From the NCBI GenBank assembly GCA_963829155.1, contig CAWHIA010000006.1, forward strand, positions 107,812 to 171,811: 64,000 bases of DNA, given 5' to 3'. The notes under the pieces were generated by a model, which worked only from the letters and a program-made list of their open reading frames with translations, made no database searches and was not told the origin of the DNA. A program made the translations under genes and the position numbers. The stretch is from an uncultured Chloroflexia bacterium (GTDB lineage: Bacteria; Chloroflexota; Limnocylindria; Limnocylindrales; CSP1-4). Positions 49,151 to 57,346 of the stretch are shown here, piece after piece (positions within the stretch are counted from its first letter, which is position 1; each line of letters begins with the position of its first letter).

Positions 49151-50902
49151 CTAGGACGCCTCGGCGACCCGATCGTGCCGCGCCGTACTCACGGTCGATC
49201 CCTCGGCCCTCGGAGTGGCCTCGGCGGCGATCGCTCGGACCTCGGCAACGGACGAGGCCGCTAGTGCGCGGACGGCGAGCTCACGGCACTGCGCCAGATC
49301 CAGCTCGGTCATCCTTGCGCGCGCGTTCGGGATCGATGCGGGCGCAACGCTCAGCTCCTCGACCCCCAAGCCGATCAGGAGCGGCATGAGGACGGGATCG
49401 GCGGCGGCCTCGCCGCAGACCGCGACATGGCGGCCATTCGCAAGAGCCGCGCGAACCACCAGGTCGATGAGCCGCAGGATCGACGGCTGGGCGGCCGTCG
49501 CCAGGTCCGCGAGCTCCGGGTTGGTCCGATCCGCCGCGAGCGCGTACTGCACGAGGTCGTTGGTCCCGATCGAGAAGAAGTCGGCGGAGCCGGCCAGGAC
49601 GTCGGCCATGATGGCCGCGGACGGGACTTCGATCATGATCCCCAGGGCGACCCGGGTCGGGACGGGCCGTCCGTGCGCGACCAGATCGGCCTGCACGAGC
49701 TCGAGCCGCTCGCGGGCCTGGTCGAGCTCCTCGCGCGTCGCGACCATCGGCAGCATCACCCGCAGCTCGTCGCCGCCCGCGGCTTCGAGAAGGGAGGTGA
49801 GCTGGTCGTCCAGCAGGGCGGTCCGTCGCAGGCCCAACCGGATCCCGCGAACGCCGAGCGCCGGATTGGCCTCGGACCCGGGCTGCCAGGCGGCGGGCTT
49901 GTCGCCGCCGACGTCGAGGGTGCGGAACACGATGGGCCGGCCGGGCATGGCGGCACGGATCCGGCGATAGGCCGCCCGCTGTTCGGCGATCGTGGGAGGC
50001 GTATGGCGGCCGAGGAACAGCAGCTCGGTCCGCACCAGTCCGATGCCGTCGGCTCCGGCGAGCGCCGCGGCCTCCGCCTCGTGCGCCGACCCGACGTTGG
50101 CCACGAGGGCGACGGCCAGCGGCCGGTCGCCGGCCTGGACGACCGGTGGGACGGGCCGCGGCGTCGCCCGTAGGGCGGCGAGCTCTTCGGCGCTCGGCGA
50201 GATCAGGAGGCGACCGGTCGAGCCGTCGACGGCGCCATCCGTGCCGCCGACGAGGTCGTCGATTGCGCGACCCAGACCGAGCACGAGCGGGATGCCGAGC
50301 GCGCGGGCGACGATCGCGGCGTGCCCGGTCGGCGCGCCGCCCGCGAGCGCGATGCCGCCGACCAGCTCCCGCCGCAGCGTGGCCACGGCCGATGGGTCCA
50401 GGTCGCCGGCGAGCACGATGGCCGGATAGCCGTCGCGGTGCCATAGCTCGGGCGGTGACTCGCCCCGCAGGAGCGCAGCGACGCGTCGACCCACGTCGCG
50501 CACGTCCGCGGCCCGCTCCCGGAAGTAGTCATCGTCGACGGACGCAAGCCGCTCAGCCTGCACGTCTGTCGCGCGCAGGATCGCCTCGTCCGCTGCCAGG
50601 CCCTCGTCTACCAGCGCCAGCGCGGGATCGACGATCCCCGGATCGCGTGCGAACAGGGCCTGCGCCTCGAAGATCGAGCCGACCTCCTCGCCGACCCGCT
50701 CGGACAGCTGATCGGCGAGCGCCGCCAGCTCCGACGCCGCGCTGCTGAGGGCACGCGTGAGGCGGTCGCGTTCGCCGCCTGGGGTGGCCACGGCACCGGC
50801 ATCGGAGGCGCTTGTGGTCGGGTCGGCGGTCCGAACGCGCAGCAGCCTGCCCGTGCCGACGCCGGGCGAGCCGGCGCGCCCGATCAGGATCGCCTGCGCC
50901 AT
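49151..50902 (-). CDS. ptsI: PEP:protein phosphotransferase (PTS enzyme I)
   Basis: 'GGAPTGHAAIVARALGIP', 'GIGLVRTE', 'RTLDVGGDK', 'NPALGVRGIR', 'MIEVP', 'SIGTNDLVQY', 'CGE'. Confidence 0.95.
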   Translation of the reverse strand: MAQAILIGRAGSPGVGTGRLLRVRTADPTTSASDAGAVATPGGERDRLTRALSSAASELAALADQLSERVGEEVGSIFEAQALFARDPGIVDPALALVDEGLAADEAILRATDVQAERLASVDDDYFRERAADVRDVGRRVAALLRGESPPELWHRDGYPAIVLAGDLDPSAVATLRRELVGGIALAGGAPTGHAAIVARALGIPLVLGLGRAIDDLVGGTDGAVDGSTGRLLISPSAEELAALRATPRPVPPVVQAGDRPLAVALVANVGSAHEAEAAALAGADGIGLVRTELLFLGRHTPPTIAEQRAAYRRIRAAMPGRPIVFRTLDVGGDKPAAWQPGSEANPALGVRGIRLGLRRTALLDDQLTSLLEAAGGDELRVMLPMVATREELDQARERLELVQADLVAHGRPVPTRVALGIMIEVPSAAIMADVLAGSADFFSIGTNDLVQYALAADRTNPELADLATAAQPSILRLIDLVVRAALANGRHVAVCGEAAADPVLMPLLIGLGVEELSVAPASIPNARARMTELDLAQCRELAVRALAASSVAEVRAIAAEATPRAEGSTVSTARHDRVAEAS

Positions 50903-50912
50903 CGTGGTCCCC

Positions 50913-51560
50913 TCAGGCGCTCGCGGCGTCCGCGAGCGCTCGGAGGAGGAGCGCCGACGACGTCGCGCCCGGATCCTGGTGTCCGATGGACCGCTCACCG
51001 AGGTAGGACGCGCGCCCCTTGGTCGCGAGCATCGGGATCGTTGCGGCCACGCCCGCCGCTGCGGCATCGGCCATCGCCAAGGACACCGCGGCGGCGTCGG
51101 CGCCCAATGCGGCGGCCTCGCGGCCGGCGGTCACGGCGGGGACGAGCGCATCGAGCATCGTCTTCTCGCCGGTGGTGGCCTTGCCGAGCGACTCGATGCC
51201 GCCGATCGCCGCCTCCAGCGCGACGACGAGCACGCCGGCCGCGGCCTGGGCCGGGTCGGCCGCGGCCACCGCTCCCGACGCTCGCAGGAACGCCGTGCCA
51301 TAGAGCGGCCCCGAGGCGCCGCCAACCGTGCTGATGAGGGTCCGGCCCGTCACTCGGAGGATGGCCCCGGCCACCGCGTACTCGCCGTCGCCCTCGGCCC
51401 GGTCACCATCGAGCGTGGCCGCCACCTTCGTGAACCCGCGGTCCATGTTGGTGCCATGGTCGCCATCGCCGATCGCCTGGTCGAGCGCGGTGAGGGTCGC
51501 TGCCTGCTCGTGCAGGCGCGTGGCGGCGAGGCGCAACCAGGCCTCGATGACGTCGATCAT
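50913..51560 (-). CDS. dhaL: Dihydroxyacetone kinase ADP-binding subunit
   Basis: 'LDQAIGDGDHGTNM', 'GGASGPLYG', 'KTMLDAL', 'KGRASYLGERSIGHQDPGATS'. Confidence 0.95.
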   Translation of the reverse strand: MIDVIEAWLRLAATRLHEQAATLTALDQAIGDGDHGTNMDRGFTKVAATLDGDRAEGDGEYAVAGAILRVTGRTLISTVGGASGPLYGTAFLRASGAVAAADPAQAAAGVLVVALEAAIGGIESLGKATTGEKTMLDALVPAVTAGREAAALGADAAAVSLAMADAAAAGVAATIPMLATKGRASYLGERSIGHQDPGATSSALLLRALADAASA

Positions 51561-51697: not shown

Positions 51698-52720
51698 TCA
51701 GACGCCCCAGCGGAGCGCCGGCGTGTGGACCGGTGCGTCCCACAGGCGGATCAGCTCATCGTCGAGCCGGAGCAGCGTGACCGAGAAGCCGGCCATCTCG
51801 AGGCTCGTGATGTAGTTGCCGACCAGGGACCGACCGATCGAGATGCCCTTGCCGCCCAGGATCTTGGCCACGCTGTTGTAGGCGACGTAGAGCTCGATCA
51901 ATGGGCTGCCGCCCATGCCGTTGACGAAGGCGAGGACGTTGTCGCCCCTCGTCAGGCCAAGATCCGAGACGATGGGGCCCACCAGCCACTCCGCCATGTC
52001 GTCGACCGGCGCGAGCTTCTCCCGCCGCCGGCCGGGCTCGCCATGGATGCCGATGCCGACCTCCACCTCATCGTCCGGGAGGTCGAAGGTCGGGGTCCCG
52101 GCGGCCGGCACCACGCACGAGGTCAGGGCGAGGCCCATCGACCGGCCCTGCGCGTTCACCCTGGTCGCCGTCGCGGCCACCTCGACGAGCGAGCCGCCCG
52201 CCTCCGCGTGCGCGCCGGCGATCTTCTCCAACAGCACGGTGACGCCGACGCCGCGCCGGCCGGCCGTGTAGAGCGAGTCCTTGACGGCGACGTCGTCGTT
52301 GGTGACGACCGTCGCAACCTCGATCTCGCCCTGGACGAGCTCGGCCGCGAGCTGGAAGTTCAGCACGTCACCCGTGTAGTTCTTGACGATGTGCAGCACG
52401 CCTGCACCGCCGTCGACGGCACGGGTCGCGGCCTCCATCTGATCCGGCACGGGTGACGTGAACACGTTGCCCGCTGCGGCCGCATCGAGCATGCCAAGGC
52501 CCACGAACCCGCCGTGGAGCGGCTCGTGGCCCGAGCCGCCGCCCGACACGAGGCCGACCTTGCCCGGCTTCGGGCCGCCAGCCCGCAGGACGAGGTTCTG
52601 TGCCGTGTCGATCGTGACGAGGTCAGGATGGGCCGCCTGGAGGCCCGCCAGGCTCTCGGGAACGATGTCGTCGACGTCGTTGATGAGCTTCTTCACTCGG
52701 CTGGGCGCAGTCGTCGCCAT
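51698..52720 (-). CDS. dhaK: Dihydroxyacetone kinase DHA-binding subunit
   Basis: 'KKLIND', 'SGGGSGHEP', 'VKNYTGD', 'GRRGV', 'GIGIHGEPG', 'TSLEM'. Confidence 0.97.
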   Translation of the reverse strand: MATTAPSRVKKLINDVDDIVPESLAGLQAAHPDLVTIDTAQNLVLRAGGPKPGKVGLVSGGGSGHEPLHGGFVGLGMLDAAAAGNVFTSPVPDQMEAATRAVDGGAGVLHIVKNYTGDVLNFQLAAELVQGEIEVATVVTNDDVAVKDSLYTAGRRGVGVTVLLEKIAGAHAEAGGSLVEVAATATRVNAQGRSMGLALTSCVVPAAGTPTFDLPDDEVEVGIGIHGEPGRRREKLAPVDDMAEWLVGPIVSDLGLTRGDNVLAFVNGMGGSPLIELYVAYNSVAKILGGKGISIGRSLVGNYITSLEMAGFSVTLLRLDDELIRLWDAPVHTPALRWGV

Positions 52721-52772: not shown

Positions 52773-53558
52773 CTAGGCGTCGGCGCCGGCGGTGTCGCGG
52801 ACGGAGGACGGCGCAGGGGCCGTTTCCTTGGCCTCGCGCCCGATGAACTCGTACAGGAAGGCGCCGATCACGCCGCCGATCGTCGAGCCGAAGATGTAGA
52901 CGACGATGAGCTGATCGACCGGGACGGGCGCCGCGCCGATGGCCTGGCCGAGGATGGCGGGCGCGAGCTCGCGGGCCGGGTTCAGCGAGGCGCCGGTGAT
53001 CGGGCCGACGAGGATGATGATCCCGTAGACGATGAACCCGATGATCAAGCCTGCGAAGCCCGACGGCGCCTTGCCCGAGACGGCGGCGCCGAAGACCGTG
53101 AACACGAGGATGGCGGTCCCGATCACCTCGGCCGCGAAGCCGATCGCCAGGCCGGCCTTGGCGTTGACAGAGACCGCGCCGAGGCCCAGGGCGGCAGGGT
53201 CGTTGCCCTGCAGGATGATCAGGGTCAGGGCGGCGCCCAGAAACGCGCCGACCAGCTGGGCGCCGATGTAGCCGCCCGCGGTCCGCGGGTCGATCTTGCG
53301 GGTCGCGAGCAGGGAGATCGTCACGGCCGGGTTGATGTGGCAGCCGCTGATGTGACCGATCGAGTACACAGCGGCGAAGATCGCGAATGCGAACGAGAAC
53401 GAGATCGTCGACAGGCCGGCCGTCCCGGCGATGCCGGTGCCCCCCGCGCCCGCGGTCAGGAACACCGTCAGCGGGACGGAGCCCGCGCCGATGAAGACGA
53501 GGATGGCGGTGCCGAAGGCCTCGGCTGTCAGCTTCTGCGCCATGGTCGGGGTCGACAT
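52773..53558 (-). CDS. MIP family channel (aquaglyceroporin-like), probable DHA/glycerol facilitator
   Basis: Two NPA motifs ('GCHINPAVT', 'GASLNPAR'); six TM helices; located within the dha operon. Confidence 0.92.
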   Translation of the reverse strand: MSTPTMAQKLTAEAFGTAILVFIGAGSVPLTVFLTAGAGGTGIAGTAGLSTISFSFAFAIFAAVYSIGHISGCHINPAVTISLLATRKIDPRTAGGYIGAQLVGAFLGAALTLIILQGNDPAALGLGAVSVNAKAGLAIGFAAEVIGTAILVFTVFGAAVSGKAPSGFAGLIIGFIVYGIIILVGPITGASLNPARELAPAILGQAIGAAPVPVDQLIVVYIFGSTIGGVIGAFLYEFIGREAKETAPAPSSVRDTAGADA

Positions 53559-53592
53559 TTGGGATCCTCCGTTGTTCGTGGGTCGGGCCGGT

Positions 53593-53868
53593 TCAGCCGG
53601 CCGGGCTGACATAGGGGGCGAGCTCCGCTGCGAGCGCCGCGACCGCCTCGTCCGCGTCGGGCCCATCGGCGGCGAGTGTGATCTCGGACGACGGGCGGAT
53701 CGTCAGGCCGAGGAGGGCGATGAGGCTCTTGGCGTCGGCCTCTCGGCCGTTCTCGCGGATCACGATGCGGCTCGAGAACCGGCTCGCGGCCTGGACGAAC
53801 CGGGCCGCCGGCCGGGCATGGAGCCCGGACGGGTCGATGACCAGGAGCTGGATCTCGGCCACGGTCAC
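53593..53868 (-). CDS. ptsH: HPr phosphocarrier
   Basis: 'GLHARPA', 'ADAKSLIALLGL'. Confidence 0.93.
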   Translation of the reverse strand: MTVAEIQLLVIDPSGLHARPAARFVQAASRFSSRIVIRENGREADAKSLIALLGLTIRPSSEITLAADGPDADEAVAALAAELAPYVSPAG

Positions 53869-54272
53869 GCCCGCGGCAGCTTGGGCATCGTCGCGGCGCC
53901 CTCCGCCGCGGCGACAACGTCATCGATGGCGGCGCCGACGCTCGCCTGGACCGCGGCCAGGACCGCACCTTCGACAAGCGGCGCCTCGCTGATCCGGAGC
54001 CGGGCCCGGTCGGCCGGGTCTAGCTCCTCGGTCGCGAGCTCGAGGCTGAGCGCCGCGCTGCCCAGATCGAGGAGCACGAGCACCTCGCTCGCTCCGGCAT
54101 CGAGCGCGGACCGGAGCGCGGCGGCGATTCGCGGCGCGCTCGTCCCGAGGCGCCCGTCGTCCGTCCCTCCAGCCGTAGCGATCGGGATCTCCTCGCCGGC
54201 GACCTGGGCGACCATGTCGCGCAGGCCCTCGACGAGGGTGGCGCTGTGGGACACCAGGACCAGGCCCACCAA
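53865..54272 (-). CDS. dhaM: Dihydroxyacetone kinase phosphoryl-donor subunit (stand-alone EIIA-mannose-like)
   Basis: 'GLVLVSHS', 'AGGTDDGRLGTS', 'DLGSAAL', 'EAPLVEGAV'. Confidence 0.93.
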   Translation of the reverse strand: MVGLVLVSHSATLVEGLRDMVAQVAGEEIPIATAGGTDDGRLGTSAPRIAAALRSALDAGASEVLVLLDLGSAALSLELATEELDPADRARLRISEAPLVEGAVLAAVQASVGAAIDDVVAAAEGAATMPKLPRA

Positions 54273-54333: not shown

Positions 54334-54360
54334 CAAGAACCAAGCAAGAGCTCGACAAGA
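54334..54360. promoter_or_regulatory. Three CAAGA direct repeats with 11-bp period; candidate OmpR/PhoB-type binding site
   Basis: CAAGA at 54334, 54345 and 54356, between the dha operon and the divergent two-component operon. Confidence 0.6.
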
Positions 54361-54407: not shown

Positions 54408-54437
54408 TTGCCGGACGGTGGCGCGCACTTCTACACT
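54408..54437 (+). promoter_or_regulatory. Candidate sigma70 promoter for a leaderless dhaL2-HK-RR transcript
   Basis: TTGCCG-N18-TACACT, 9 nt before the GTG at 54447; no SD sequence. Confidence 0.5.
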
Positions 54438-54446
54438 CGCGCGACT

Positions 54447-55112
54447 GTGACAGCGCCTTCGCCCGTTCCCGCCGTTCCGTCGGACGTGATCGTCGACGCC
54501 GCGACGGTCCGGGCTGCGCTCGGGCGCTGCAGCCGGATCGTCGAGCGCCACGCCGCGTACCTCACCCGGCTCGACGTCGTGCTCGGCGACGGAGATCACG
54601 GCGACAACCTCATGATCGGCTTCCGCGCGGTCGACCGGCTGCTGGCGGAGCTGCCGGCCGAGACGCCGCCGGGCGAGCTGCTGCGCGCCGTCGGCCATCG
54701 TCTGGTCGCGACAGTGGGCGGGGCATCCGGGCCCCTGTACGGGACGGCGTTCCTGGAGGCCGGCGCCACGATCGGCGACGCCCCATCGGTCGGAGCCCGC
54801 GAGCTCGCGGCGATGCTCGGTGCGGCCGCCGCCGGCGTGGCCCGGCGGGGACGGTGCGCGGTCGGCGACAAGACGATCCTGGACGCCCTGGCCCCGGCGG
54901 CCGAAGCCCTCGAGCGCGAGCTCCGCCTCGGAGGTGGTCCCGGGGCGGCTTACGCAACGGCGCTCCGGGCCGCGGCGCATGGCATGCGTTCCACGCGCCC
55001 GCTCATCGCTCGTCGGGGCCTCGCGATGCGCCTCGGTGACCGGGCGATCGGTCATCTCGATCCTGGCGCCGTCTCCTGCCTCCTGTTGTTGCGCGCCGTG
55101 GGCGGTGGCTGA
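54447..55112 (+). CDS. DhaL-like (DAK2 domain) paralogue with a degenerate GRASY motif
   Basis: 'LDVVLGDGDHGDNL', 'GGASGPLYG', 'KTILDAL', but 'RGLAMRLGDRAIGHLDPGA'. Confidence 0.88.
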   Translation: MTAPSPVPAVPSDVIVDAATVRAALGRCSRIVERHAAYLTRLDVVLGDGDHGDNLMIGFRAVDRLLAELPAETPPGELLRAVGHRLVATVGGASGPLYGTAFLEAGATIGDAPSVGARELAAMLGAAAAGVARRGRCAVGDKTILDALAPAAEALERELRLGGGPGAAYATALRAAAHGMRSTRPLIARRGLAMRLGDRAIGHLDPGAVSCLLLLRAVGGG

Positions 55113-56637
55113 CGCCCCCGTGACCGATCGCGAGGCGCTGCTGGCACGGGTCGACGCGCTTGAGCGCGAGCGTCGCCGCTCGTTCGACGAGGCCCAGCGC
55201 GAAGCCGACGCGTTGTTCGCGCAGTACCAGCTGAGCCAGCTCATCGCGTCGGGCGGGCGCCTCGCCGATCTCGCCGCGGCCGTGCTGTCCGAGCTCGTCC
55301 GGTTGGCCGAAGCCGCCGCCGGAGCGCTGTGGCTCGGCGCGCCCGATGGCGACCGGCTGGACTGCGTCGCCGCCGTGGGCTCCGCGACCACCGGCGGACG
55401 TGCCCTGGTGCTCTCCGATGAGCCGCCGCAGACCGTGCTGGTCGTGTGGCCGATCGAGGACCGCGTCCTCGACGAGGACGGCCTCCGGGTTGCCCAGCTC
55501 GCGCGCCATGAGCTCGCGGTCGCCTTCGCCGGGGCGCGCCTGCGGGAAGCGCTCGAGCAGGAGCGACACGAGCTGGAGGCCATCGTCGACGGTGCGACCG
55601 ATCTGATCGTCCAGGTGGACGCAGACGGCCTGGTGGTGCGGCTGAACCCGGCCGGCGAGCGACTCCTGGGGACCTCAGCGGCGGCGGCCGTCGGTCGGAC
55701 GTGTGCCGATGTGCTCGGCTGCGAGGTCGCCGGAGCGCACGCGCCACGCGCCTGCCCGCTGGCGGAGGTACGCCTGAGCGGCGTCCCCATCGCCTACCGC
55801 GAGGCGTCGGTCGTCGGCGCCGACGGGCATCCGCTACGGGTCGCCGGCAGCTACGCGGCGGCGCCGGGTGGCGTGACCGCCAGGGCGACCGCGATATTGC
55901 GCGACATGAGCGCGGTCCGAGCGCTCGAGGAGCTCCGCGAAGGGTTCGTGGCCACGGTCAGCCACGAGCTGCGGACGCCGCTGGCCCTGATCCGCGGCTA
56001 CGCGGAAACGCTGCTCCACTTCGACCTCGACTCGGGCGAGCAGCGGGCGTACGTCGAGCGCATCGACGAGGCGTCACGCCGTCTCGCATCGCTCGTCGAC
56101 CAGGTGCTGGACGTCACCCACCTCCAGGCCGATCCACTGATCCTGGACCGTTCGACGACAACGTTCGCGGCGCTCGTCGCGCGCCTGCGCGGTGACCTCG
56201 CGATCTCCGGCGGCGCAGATCGCCTCGTGCAGTCGGCGCCGGCCGACCTGCCGCCCGTGGACGTCGACGTCGCGCGGGTCGGGCAGATCCTGACGAACCT
56301 CGTCGGCAACGCGCTCAAATACGCGCCGGACGGCTCGCCGGTCGTCGTCAGCGCCGAGACCGACGGACCGTGGCTCGTCGTGGCGGTCGTCGACGAAGGC
56401 GTCGGCGTCCCCGAGGACGATCGCCCGTTGGTGACCGAGCCGTTCCACCGAGCCTGGAACGTCCGGGAGTCGCGGATCCCCGGGACGGGCCTCGGCCTGT
56501 TCATCTGCCGGCGCCTGGTCGAGGCGCACGGCGGTCACCTGTCGCTGGGCGACCGGCTCGATGGCCGACCGGGGACACGGGTGACCTTCACGATTCCCCT
56601 GGCAACCGACCCGGTCGGAGCGCCGGCGGGTGGCTGA
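55105..56637 (+). CDS. Cytoplasmic sensor histidine kinase (coiled coil, GAF-like, PAS, HisKA, HATPase)
   Basis: 'VSHELRTPL', 'NLVGNALKY', 'DEGVGV', 'GTGLGL'; no TM segment; 8-bp GTGGCTGA overlap with dhaL2. Confidence 0.92.
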   Translation: MADAPVTDREALLARVDALERERRRSFDEAQREADALFAQYQLSQLIASGGRLADLAAAVLSELVRLAEAAAGALWLGAPDGDRLDCVAAVGSATTGGRALVLSDEPPQTVLVVWPIEDRVLDEDGLRVAQLARHELAVAFAGARLREALEQERHELEAIVDGATDLIVQVDADGLVVRLNPAGERLLGTSAAAAVGRTCADVLGCEVAGAHAPRACPLAEVRLSGVPIAYREASVVGADGHPLRVAGSYAAAPGGVTARATAILRDMSAVRALEELREGFVATVSHELRTPLALIRGYAETLLHFDLDSGEQRAYVERIDEASRRLASLVDQVLDVTHLQADPLILDRSTTTFAALVARLRGDLAISGGADRLVQSAPADLPPVDVDVARVGQILTNLVGNALKYAPDGSPVVVSAETDGPWLVVAVVDEGVGVPEDDRPLVTEPFHRAWNVRESRIPGTGLGLFICRRLVEAHGGHLSLGDRLDGRPGTRVTFTIPLATDPVGAPAGG

Positions 56638-57346
56638 GTCGATCCTGATCGTCGAGGACGAGCCGGAATTCGCCGCGCTCGTGGAGCTGTGGATGATCCG
56701 TGCCGGCTACCGGGTCGTGACCGCCCGGACCGGCCCTGATGGGCTGCGCCGCTTCTATGACGAGCGACCCGACCTCGTGATCCTCGACGTCGCGGTCCCC
56801 GGCCTCGATGGCTGGCAGCTCATCGAGCGCTTCCGGGAGTTCAGCCGGGTACCGATCCTCATGGTGACCGCGCACGGTTCGGAGGCCGAGAAGGTGCGCG
56901 GCCTGAAGCTCGGGGCCGACGACTACATCACCAAGCCGCTCAGCCTGCCCGAGCTGACCGCCCGCGTGGAGGCGGCCCTGCGACGCGCCGCGACGAGCGC
57001 TCCCGAGCGGCCGCGGCGGCTGCGGCATCGCGACCTGGTCGTCGATCTCGACGAGCACCAGGCCCACCTGCGGGGCACCGAGGTTCGCCTGACGCCGACG
57101 GAGTTCAGGCTCCTCGCCTACCTGGTGGAGCATGCCGGCCAGCTCGCGACACACCGTCAGATCCTGGGCGCGGTGTGGGGCGCCGGGTACGACCGCGACG
57201 TCCACCTGCTGCGGATGACGATCCGCAACCTCCGGCTCCGCCTGGACGTGGCGGCTCCCGGAGAGTCGGTCATCACCACCGAGTACGGGCTGGGCTACAG
57301 GCTCACCGGCCCGTCCGAGTCCCGCGACGGCCCGCCGGTCAGCTGA
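56630..57346 (+). CDS. OmpR/PhoB-family response regulator
   Basis: 'ILIVEDE', 'DLVILDV', 'GADDYITKP', winged helix 'LTPTEFRLL...VWG...LRLRL...TEYGLGY'. Confidence 0.95.
   Translation: MAESILIVEDEPEFAALVELWMIRAGYRVVTARTGPDGLRRFYDERPDLVILDVAVPGLDGWQLIERFREFSRVPILMVTAHGSEAEKVRGLKLGADDYITKPLSLPELTARVEAALRRAATSAPERPRRLRHRDLVVDLDEHQAHLRGTEVRLTPTEFRLLAYLVEHAGQLATHRQILGAVWGAGYDRDVHLLRMTIRNLRLRLDVAAPGESVITTEYGLGYRLTGPSESRDGPPVS

Follow-up and report, generated by a model that had tools for sequence, protein, structure and literature searches.

Why should the gene of a dihydroxyacetone (DHA) kinase subunit be coupled to the genes of a two-component system? The question is raised by a 64,000-nucleotide stretch of DNA from an uncultured Chloroflexia bacterium (contig CAWHIA010000006.1, positions 107,812 to 171,811 of the forward strand; hereafter the window). 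Here a second DhaL-like gene, which we call dhaL2, lies divergent from a complete dha operon and is coupled to the genes of a histidine kinase without membrane segment and of a response regulator. Our gene calls agree with the initial annotation, made from the letters of the sequence, on this arrangement. The elements in question are as follows:

54447-55112, plus strand: DhaL2 (Pfam Dak2, E 3.6e-44), with a GTG start
55014-55031, plus strand: loop RGLAMR of DhaL2 (residues 190-195), which replaces KGRASY of DhaL1 and Escherichia coli DhaL; Leu192 corresponds to E. coli Arg178
55105-56637, plus strand: soluble histidine kinase of 510 residues (Pfam PAS, HisKA and HATPase_c)
56630-57346, plus strand: OmpR/PhoB-type response regulator (Response_reg E 3e-27, Trans_reg_C E 4e-19)

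We consider it highly likely that DhaL2 is a functional part of a signalling module. The more specific reading takes DhaL2 for a paralogue of the ADP-carrying subunit DhaL that is non-catalytic and serves as the protein co-sensor of the soluble kinase; it has about an even chance of being correct. The module is real, conserved and coherent, while the mechanism proposed for it is attractive but unproven.

With DhaL2 as the query, 20 genome loci were obtained, 17 of them from Chloroflexota. The relatives of the window are Chloroflexota metagenome-assembled genomes labelled Candidatus Limnocylindrales/Limnocylindria or "uncultured Chloroflexia". Conservation of the three-gene linkage had been put forward as a test in the initial annotation, and the linkage held in every relative with enough contig, the kinase gene directly following dhaL2 in 21 of 21. 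All 17 Chloroflexota loci carried DhaL2 and then the kinase, and 16 carried the regulator as well, the contig of L006 ending inside the kinase gene. Among these 17 loci the identity fell to ~50% for DhaL2 and to ~40% for the kinase. The same gene order was kept in a sister clade (L022, with 61% G+C, and L023) and in the long-branch locus L034. The three non-Chloroflexota loci proved to be ordinary dhaK-dhaL operons with KGRASY-type loops.

The sequence GTGGCTGA occurs at exactly 55105 and 56630, and with its GTG start and TGA stop gives an 8-nt overlap at both junctions. Both of the identical overlaps emphasised in the initial annotation are therefore present, but the shared 8-mer is not significant as a signal in itself: the window holds 5 copies where 2.3 would be expected, a number reached in 10 of 100 shuffles. 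Only the conservation of the overlap matters. In 17 of 23 loci the stop of dhaL2 and the start of the kinase gene overlap, by 4, 8 or 11 nt; the remainder are for the most part frameshifted assemblies. Such overlaps persist from ~90% to ~50% DhaL2 identity. As read from these junctions, the translation of dhaL2 is coupled to that of the kinase and regulator genes.

DhaL2 retains the fold and the nucleotide site of a DhaL. It scores 180.3 bits against the DhaL equivalog model TIGR02365 (cutoff 138.3), aligns end to end with E. coli DhaL (2BTD, E 4e-32) and is 44% identical to DhaL1, the DhaL of the dha operon; public records annotate DhaL2-type proteins as plain DhaL. The AlphaFold (AF2) model of DhaL2, with a predicted local distance difference test score (pLDDT) of 86.6, had E. 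coli DhaL of the DhaK-DhaL complex as its top fold match (3PNL_B, TM-score 0.83/0.87), and free E. coli DhaL (2BTD) and Lactococcus lactis DhaL of the DhaM-DhaL complex came next. Dak2 domains occur also in the fatty-acid kinase FakA, and FakA structures were likewise among the fold matches. The ADP/Mg motifs noted earlier are present in DhaL2 (GDGDHG at residues 47-52, GGASGPLYG at 91-99 and GH.DPGA at 202-208), and the RGLAMR loop was confirmed at its position. We then compared 22 DhaL2-type sequences with 132 canonical DhaLs. The Mg/nucleotide ligands (Asp30/35/37, the GGxSG loop, GDKT and GHxDPGA) are at least 90% conserved in the 22 DhaL2-clade sequences. Residues D30, D35, D37, H38, G77, G78, A79 and G81 (E. 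coli numbering) are common to both groups, as are the further ligands K128, T129, D132, H189 and D191-A194. Judged by these residues, DhaL2 very probably binds nucleotide.

The loop tells the two groups apart. Position 178 in E. coli numbering is Arg in 97% of the canonical DhaLs and never Leu, and it is Leu in 95% of the DhaL2 sequences. Other changes fixed in DhaL2 are Y181 to R, A123 to C, M130 to I and C at position 197 (same numbering). In human TKFC, Arg543 lies in a mobile loop that closes over ATP, and its mutation is reported to abolish triokinase activity (PMC13663913, a 2026 review); the statement in the initial annotation that the GRASY Arg is needed for catalysis thus has a published basis. 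Because the spacing from Gly-Arg to Asp is the same in both (E. coli, 177/178 to 191; human, 542/543 to 556), E. coli Arg178 corresponds to human Arg543. If the Arg requirement holds in DhaL2 as well, the protein would be unable to phosphorylate DHA, and we regard it as likely that DhaL2 is non-catalytic.

An exhaustive search of 1.84 billion representatives with a DhaL2 profile returned 7,502 matches at E <=0.001. The best 150 of these 7,502, which were listed, split in two, namely a small GRC/Leu-loop group and a remainder of canonical KGRASY proteins; in these best 150 the small group carries both "GRC..GDKT" and either "RRGLA(L/M/V)RLG" or "RCGLAMQYG". In a maximum-likelihood tree of 158 DhaLs, all Leu/Ile-loop "GRC" sequences formed one 24-row clade with a Shimodaira-Hasegawa-like approximate likelihood ratio test (SH-aLRT) value of 100 and 0 canonical members. 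Loss of the Arg does define a clade, which the initial annotation had proposed as a test. Since the clade is supported and the DhaL1 copies of the same lineage are placed elsewhere in the tree, outside it, DhaL2 is an old, separately maintained paralogue and not a recent decaying duplicate. Two cysteines also mark this clade. Cys137 (54855-54857) and Cys211 (55077-55079) are almost invariant within it and nearly absent from canonical DhaL; they correspond to E. coli positions A123 and S/V197, and they adjoin the nucleotide motifs GRC..GDKT and DPGAxSC.

Some other DhaL forms were met in these searches. The DhaL-like proteins P0292, P0295, P0296 and P0359 lie outside the DhaL2 clade and also miss the loop Arg (RWGTAAYFG, KQGKARYLG, KKGKASYLG). 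Natural fusions of canonical DhaL were seen among P0323, P0261, P0290 and P0283, in the forms DhaL-DhaM, DhaL-DhaM-HPr and DhaL-DhaM-HPr-EI (1059 residues; EI, Enzyme I); one of these four entries is a Dak2-cytochrome P450 fusion of 648 residues with the loop KGRASRLG, which may be a gene-call artefact. Two apparent Dak2-HisKA fusions, P0260 and P0377, were rejected as frameshift artefacts.

What, then, does DhaL2 work with? On the minus strand, the window encodes the following genes of the dha operon and the phosphoenolpyruvate (PEP)-dependent phosphotransferase system (PTS):

53865-54272, minus strand: dhaM, with one EIIA-man domain (E 1e-24) and His9 in the motif VSHS
53593-53868, minus strand: HPr (PTS-HPr E 5e-26)
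52773-53561, minus strand: MIP/GlpF-type glycerol facilitator (Pfam MIP E 2e-44); its start codon is uncertain, the open reading frame being open to 53666
51698-52720, minus strand: dhaK (Dak1 E 1e-123)
50913-51554, minus strand: dhaL1, the canonical ADP-binding subunit with a KGRASY loop (Dak2 E 8e-47; TIGR02365 218.7 bits, cutoff 138.3)
49151-50899, minus strand: ptsI, Enzyme I (Pfam PEP-utilizers_C, PEP-utilisers_N and PEP-utilizers), the final gene of the dha/PTS operon

The operon dhaM-HPr-glpF-dhaK-dhaL1-ptsI is a complete PTS-dependent DHA kinase set, from which the dhaL2-kinase-regulator genes diverge; the dhaL2 start lies 175 bp from the dhaM start. G+C content in the window is 71-76%. 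The assembly from which the window comes (3.4 Mb, 72% complete) holds one HPr, one DhaK (a single Dak1 match) and two free-standing DhaLs. A third Dak2 domain of the same genome is found on another contig (G000:C12:289234-289731), within a 762-residue open frame, and is probably part of a YloV/FakA-type DAK2 fusion protein unrelated to the DhaL2 module.

Across the relatives, 19 of 23 loci have an EIIA-man (dhaM) gene directly beside dhaL2 and divergent from it; contig ends account for two of the exceptions. In L034 an orphan EIIA-man protein of 112 residues faces the DhaL2-kinase-regulator genes, with an amino-acid ATP-binding cassette (ABC) transporter behind it and no DhaK or DhaL1 near the module. 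Neither DhaM nor dha genes were found within the 5-kb contig of L022. Hence the conserved core is DhaM facing DhaL2, kinase and regulator, and not the DHA kinase. Of the genomic arguments for DhaM as the partner of DhaL2, this is the strongest. The term "regulatory system for DHA kinase" in the initial annotation is consequently too narrow in its reference to DHA kinase, because the conserved partner is DhaM, the module of L034 has no DhaK or DhaL1 nearby, and that of L022 has no dha operon or DhaM within its 5-kb contig.

Two side observations concern the same neighbourhood. At the usual DhaM position, L022 (1181-1681, minus strand) encodes a 166-residue protein without Pfam match, and a TP_methylase gene lies behind it. 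Five loci of distant Limnocylindria (L008, L009, L010, L012 and L013) carry a third DhaL with a canonical KGRASY loop, besides the DhaL after dhaK. It stands directly after dhaM in four of the five (e.g. L008:4764-5375, minus strand) and beyond the regulator gene in L009; no HPr or EI gene was found within the stretch examined of these five loci.

The kinase and the regulator have the features of a classical two-component pair, i.e. an H-box His, N, G1 and G2 boxes, a receiver Asp pocket and a winged-helix output. The kinase boxes are intact (HELRTP at 287, with H287; NLVGNALKY at 398; DEGVG at 430; GTGLG at 460), and in the regulator one can make out the acidic pocket, the aspartate of LVILD, and the T and K residues. 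With a maximal Kyte-Doolittle mean of 1.33 over 19 residues, the kinase lacks any membrane segment. Its layout, by residue, is:

6-48: N-terminal helix
53-132: GAF-like domain
134-163: linker helix
165-270: PAS
287 (H287): HisKA
388-500: HATPase_c

In the AlphaFold model of the kinase (pLDDT 91), the helix 6-48 is followed by a GAF-like alpha/beta domain of small size, then by a long linker helix and by the PAS domain, and the orthologue in L034 gives weak Pfam GAF matches over the same region. When 16 orthologues were aligned, the N-terminal helix showed the invariant residues F27, A30, Q31, A34, D35, F38, A39, Y41, L43, S44, Q45 and A48, followed by a variable, indel-rich middle, a conserved linker helix and a PAS domain in which C200, C206 and C217-P218 do not vary. 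The full N-terminal profile of the kinase was run on 401 genomes sampled from the phylum and matched only inside the class of the window; outside it, matches were confined to the linker/PAS part, apart from a few longer and weaker ones. Ten outgroup kinases aligned only from residue 100-145 onward, and 0 of the 10 had a Dak2 neighbour. The presence of DhaL2 therefore tracks the N-terminal helix and GAF-like module. Because the two co-occur, we infer that this module would be the likeliest docking site for DhaL2.

The PAS domain may add a second input. Its Cys motif (55702-55758) reads C-x5-C-x10-C-P with a nearby His in close relatives, and four Cys in distant ones (CGxxCPF or CX5CX3CX3CP). 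The form C-x15-C-x3-C-P is that of the PAS domain in related Chloroflexota kinases that have no DhaL gene beside them, and the motif was for that reason ruled out as a DhaL2-specific feature. Since these outgroup kinases share a related motif, it is independent of DhaL2 and predates the association. The motif may bind a metal or an Fe-S cluster or serve as a redox site, which would give the kinase that second input, and DhaL2 is probably not the sole input of the kinase.

Between dhaM and dhaL2 two further elements were recognised:

54334-54360, plus strand: three CAAGA direct repeats (54334, 54345, 54356) with 11-bp spacing, recognised by conservation; candidate operator of the regulator
54408-54437, plus strand: promoter-like TTGCCG, 18-nt spacer and TACACT, recognised by conservation alone; ends 9 nt before the dhaL2 GTG

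The CAAGA boxes lie within an A/T-rich block that is the most conserved part of an eight-locus intergenic alignment. The exact triple is found in the window, L002, L003 and L005, with near-matches in the other four of these close loci; 0.03 occurrences are expected by chance in the window, and, with up to one mismatch allowed, the 3.4-Mb assembly holds no other such site. The boxes are placed ~60-90 bp upstream of the dhaM start and also upstream of the dhaL2 promoter-like element. Regulators of the OmpR/PhoB family usually bind at direct repeats spaced by one helical turn, and the boxes are a candidate operator of the OmpR-type regulator. At the promoter-like region of dhaL2, GTTGC, CTA and TCG..CGAC.GTG are invariant across the eight loci; scans with sigma-70 promoter and terminator consensus sequences gave no match. 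A leaderless or near-leaderless dhaL2 mRNA is suggested, because the promoter-like element ends 9 nt before the GTG.

A mechanism can be proposed in which DhaL2 reads the phosphorylation state of DhaM. Phosphoryl groups passing from PEP via EI and HPr to DhaM~P would turn DhaL2-ADP into DhaL2-ATP. Without the Arg, DhaL2 could not discharge to DhaK-bound DHA, and its ADP/ATP state would report the availability of DhaM~P, the level of which would be set here by the PEP supply and by the rate of drain via DhaL1 and DhaK when DHA is present. One nucleotide state of DhaL2 would then dock on the N-terminal helix or GAF-like module of the kinase and shift its kinase/phosphatase balance, and the phosphorylated regulator would bind the three CAAGA boxes and control both the dha/PTS operon and its own operon. 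We see the whole chain, from DhaM through DhaL2 and the kinase to the regulator at the CAAGA boxes, as evenly poised between right and wrong. Tentatively, and with rather less assurance, the scheme may be generalised to a four-protein relay from PTS to two-component system (DhaM, DhaL2, kinase and regulator), in which the bound ADP/ATP of a pseudo-enzyme would be the exchangeable signal and which would be portable beyond the dha operon, as in L034. Its extreme form, a PEP-driven system in which the kinase would autophosphorylate with the phosphoryl group of the ATP bound to DhaL2, is very improbable at best.

Several observations weigh against the proposed chain. The binding of DhaL2 to the kinase is a step that we infer, and no natural fusion of DhaL with a histidine kinase was found among the 120 listed of 501 kinase homologues. 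The architecture of the kinase resembles the DhaL-binding receiver of DhaR, but judging from the models this is a generic fold likeness only. Foldseek with the kinase model returned tandem-sensor proteins such as FixL and bacteriophytochromes, and three DhaR(N) complexes ranked 14, 21 and 24 (E ~1e-6, TM-score 0.35-0.39). A specific homology between the kinase N-terminus and DhaR(N) was not supported, as hmmsearch gave E 0.024 over the PAS part only and hhalign gave a probability of 18% over the linker/PAS only. The primary signal of the kinase could be something else, because its PAS domain has a Cys motif of its own that is shared with DhaL-less kinases. Two loci, L007 and L022, have no adjacent DhaM. 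One lost Arg does not prove that all catalysis is lost. Finally, the CAAGA boxes are no universal operator, being absent from the distant loci L006-L017; the regulators of loci without these boxes are only ~52% identical to that of the window.

Some of these points would suit a different input. DhaL2 might be an accessory sensor through which the kinase receives a non-PTS signal, such as free ADP/ATP, a lipid or other small ligand, or the redox state via its two Cys residues, and the adjacency of DhaM would then reflect shared regulation only. The clade-specific and nearly invariant Cys137 and Cys211 agree with this, as do the conserved Cys motif in the kinase PAS, the match of FakA structures to the DhaL2 fold, and L022 and L007 with their lack of an adjacent DhaM. 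We nevertheless think it unlikely, given that dhaM directly adjoins dhaL2 in divergent orientation at 19 of 23 loci, that the orphan EIIA of L034, where DHA kinase genes are absent, has no other obvious partner, and that DhaL2 keeps all residues common to the DhaM-charged canonical DhaLs.

DhaL2 might, on the other hand, never contact the kinase and act on the PTS side, for instance by buffering or draining the phosphoryl groups of DhaM~P or by competing with DhaL1 at DhaK as an inhibitor, in which case it would merely be the first gene of an operon autoregulated by the two-component system. That DhaL is encoded twice, and DhaK and DhaM once each, would be in keeping with such a role, and so would the lack of DhaL-kinase fusions among the 120 listed kinase homologues. 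The overlaps with the kinase gene, however, persist down to ~50% DhaL2 identity, the module persists in L034 without DhaK or DhaL1 nearby, and the N-terminal module of the kinase co-occurs with DhaL2, so that this explanation appears to us less likely still. DhaL2 might, lastly, be a working second isoform that pairs with DhaK, or with another K-type partner for a different substrate, and is merely regulated by the two-component system; that DhaL2 exceeds the DhaL equivalog cutoff, is annotated as DhaL in public records and has all nucleotide ligands intact would be expected of such an enzyme. Against it, the Arg reported as essential is replaced across the whole clade, no second Dak1 gene is found in the genome (the assembly being 72% complete), and L034 has no K subunit nearby. 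We rate a catalytic isoform as quite improbable.

The proposed role of DhaL2 as a co-sensor has counterparts in known systems, to none of which the module belongs. In E. coli, DhaL activates DhaR via a GAF+PAS receiver (PMC10084136). As there, a DhaL whose ADP/ATP load is set by DhaM and DHA would signal to a divergently encoded regulator (PMC10084136), and the kinase likewise has a GAF-like and PAS architecture. The E. coli system differs in using the catalytic DhaL and a one-component AAA+ factor, whereas the module described here has an Arg-less paralogue, a histidine kinase and a separate OmpR-type regulator. In L. lactis, DhaQ, a paralogue of DhaK, co-activates DhaS (PMC7590123), so that a dedicated paralogue of a DHA kinase subunit is there the sensor partner of a transcription regulator of the dha operon (PMC7590123), as is proposed for DhaL2. 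DhaQ, however, derives from the DHA-binding K subunit, senses DHA directly and works with a TetR regulator, in contrast to an L-subunit paralogue with two-component output. For the step from PTS to kinase, the unphosphorylated PtsN of Sinorhizobium fredii binds KdpD via a GAF domain (PMC9239096). In PtsN (EIIA-Ntr) with KdpD/PhoR, it is by protein contact that a histidine kinase receives the phosphorylation state of a PTS branch, and the same is proposed here. The difference is that in PtsN-KdpD the EIIA itself binds the kinase, and here a Dak2 protein would stand between DhaM and the kinase, with its gene coupled to that of the kinase. A search of full-text literature turned up no paper connecting DhaL or Dak2 with a histidine kinase. 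The small protein PII (GlnB), loaded with its effectors, docks on the soluble PAS kinase NtrB and sets its kinase/phosphatase balance. That pair differs in its unrelated folds, in its signal (2-oxoglutarate, ATP and uridylylation) and in that the PII gene is not known to be coupled to that of NtrB.

If the proposed reading is true, the module would represent a third route of gene control via DHA kinase subunits, after DhaR with DhaL/DhaK and DhaS with DhaQ, and DhaL2 would be the first Dak2 protein that feeds a two-component system. It would also provide a defined route from the PTS phosphorylation state to a histidine kinase, and a clean natural case in which an enzyme subunit has become a sensor through the loss of one catalytic residue while its cofactor site was kept. 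The signature RRGLA(L/M)RLG together with GRC would permit the re-annotation of proteins now labelled as ordinary DhaL. As Limnocylindria are abundant uncultured bacteria of soil and freshwater, this compact and expressible four-protein module would offer a practical entry to their signalling.

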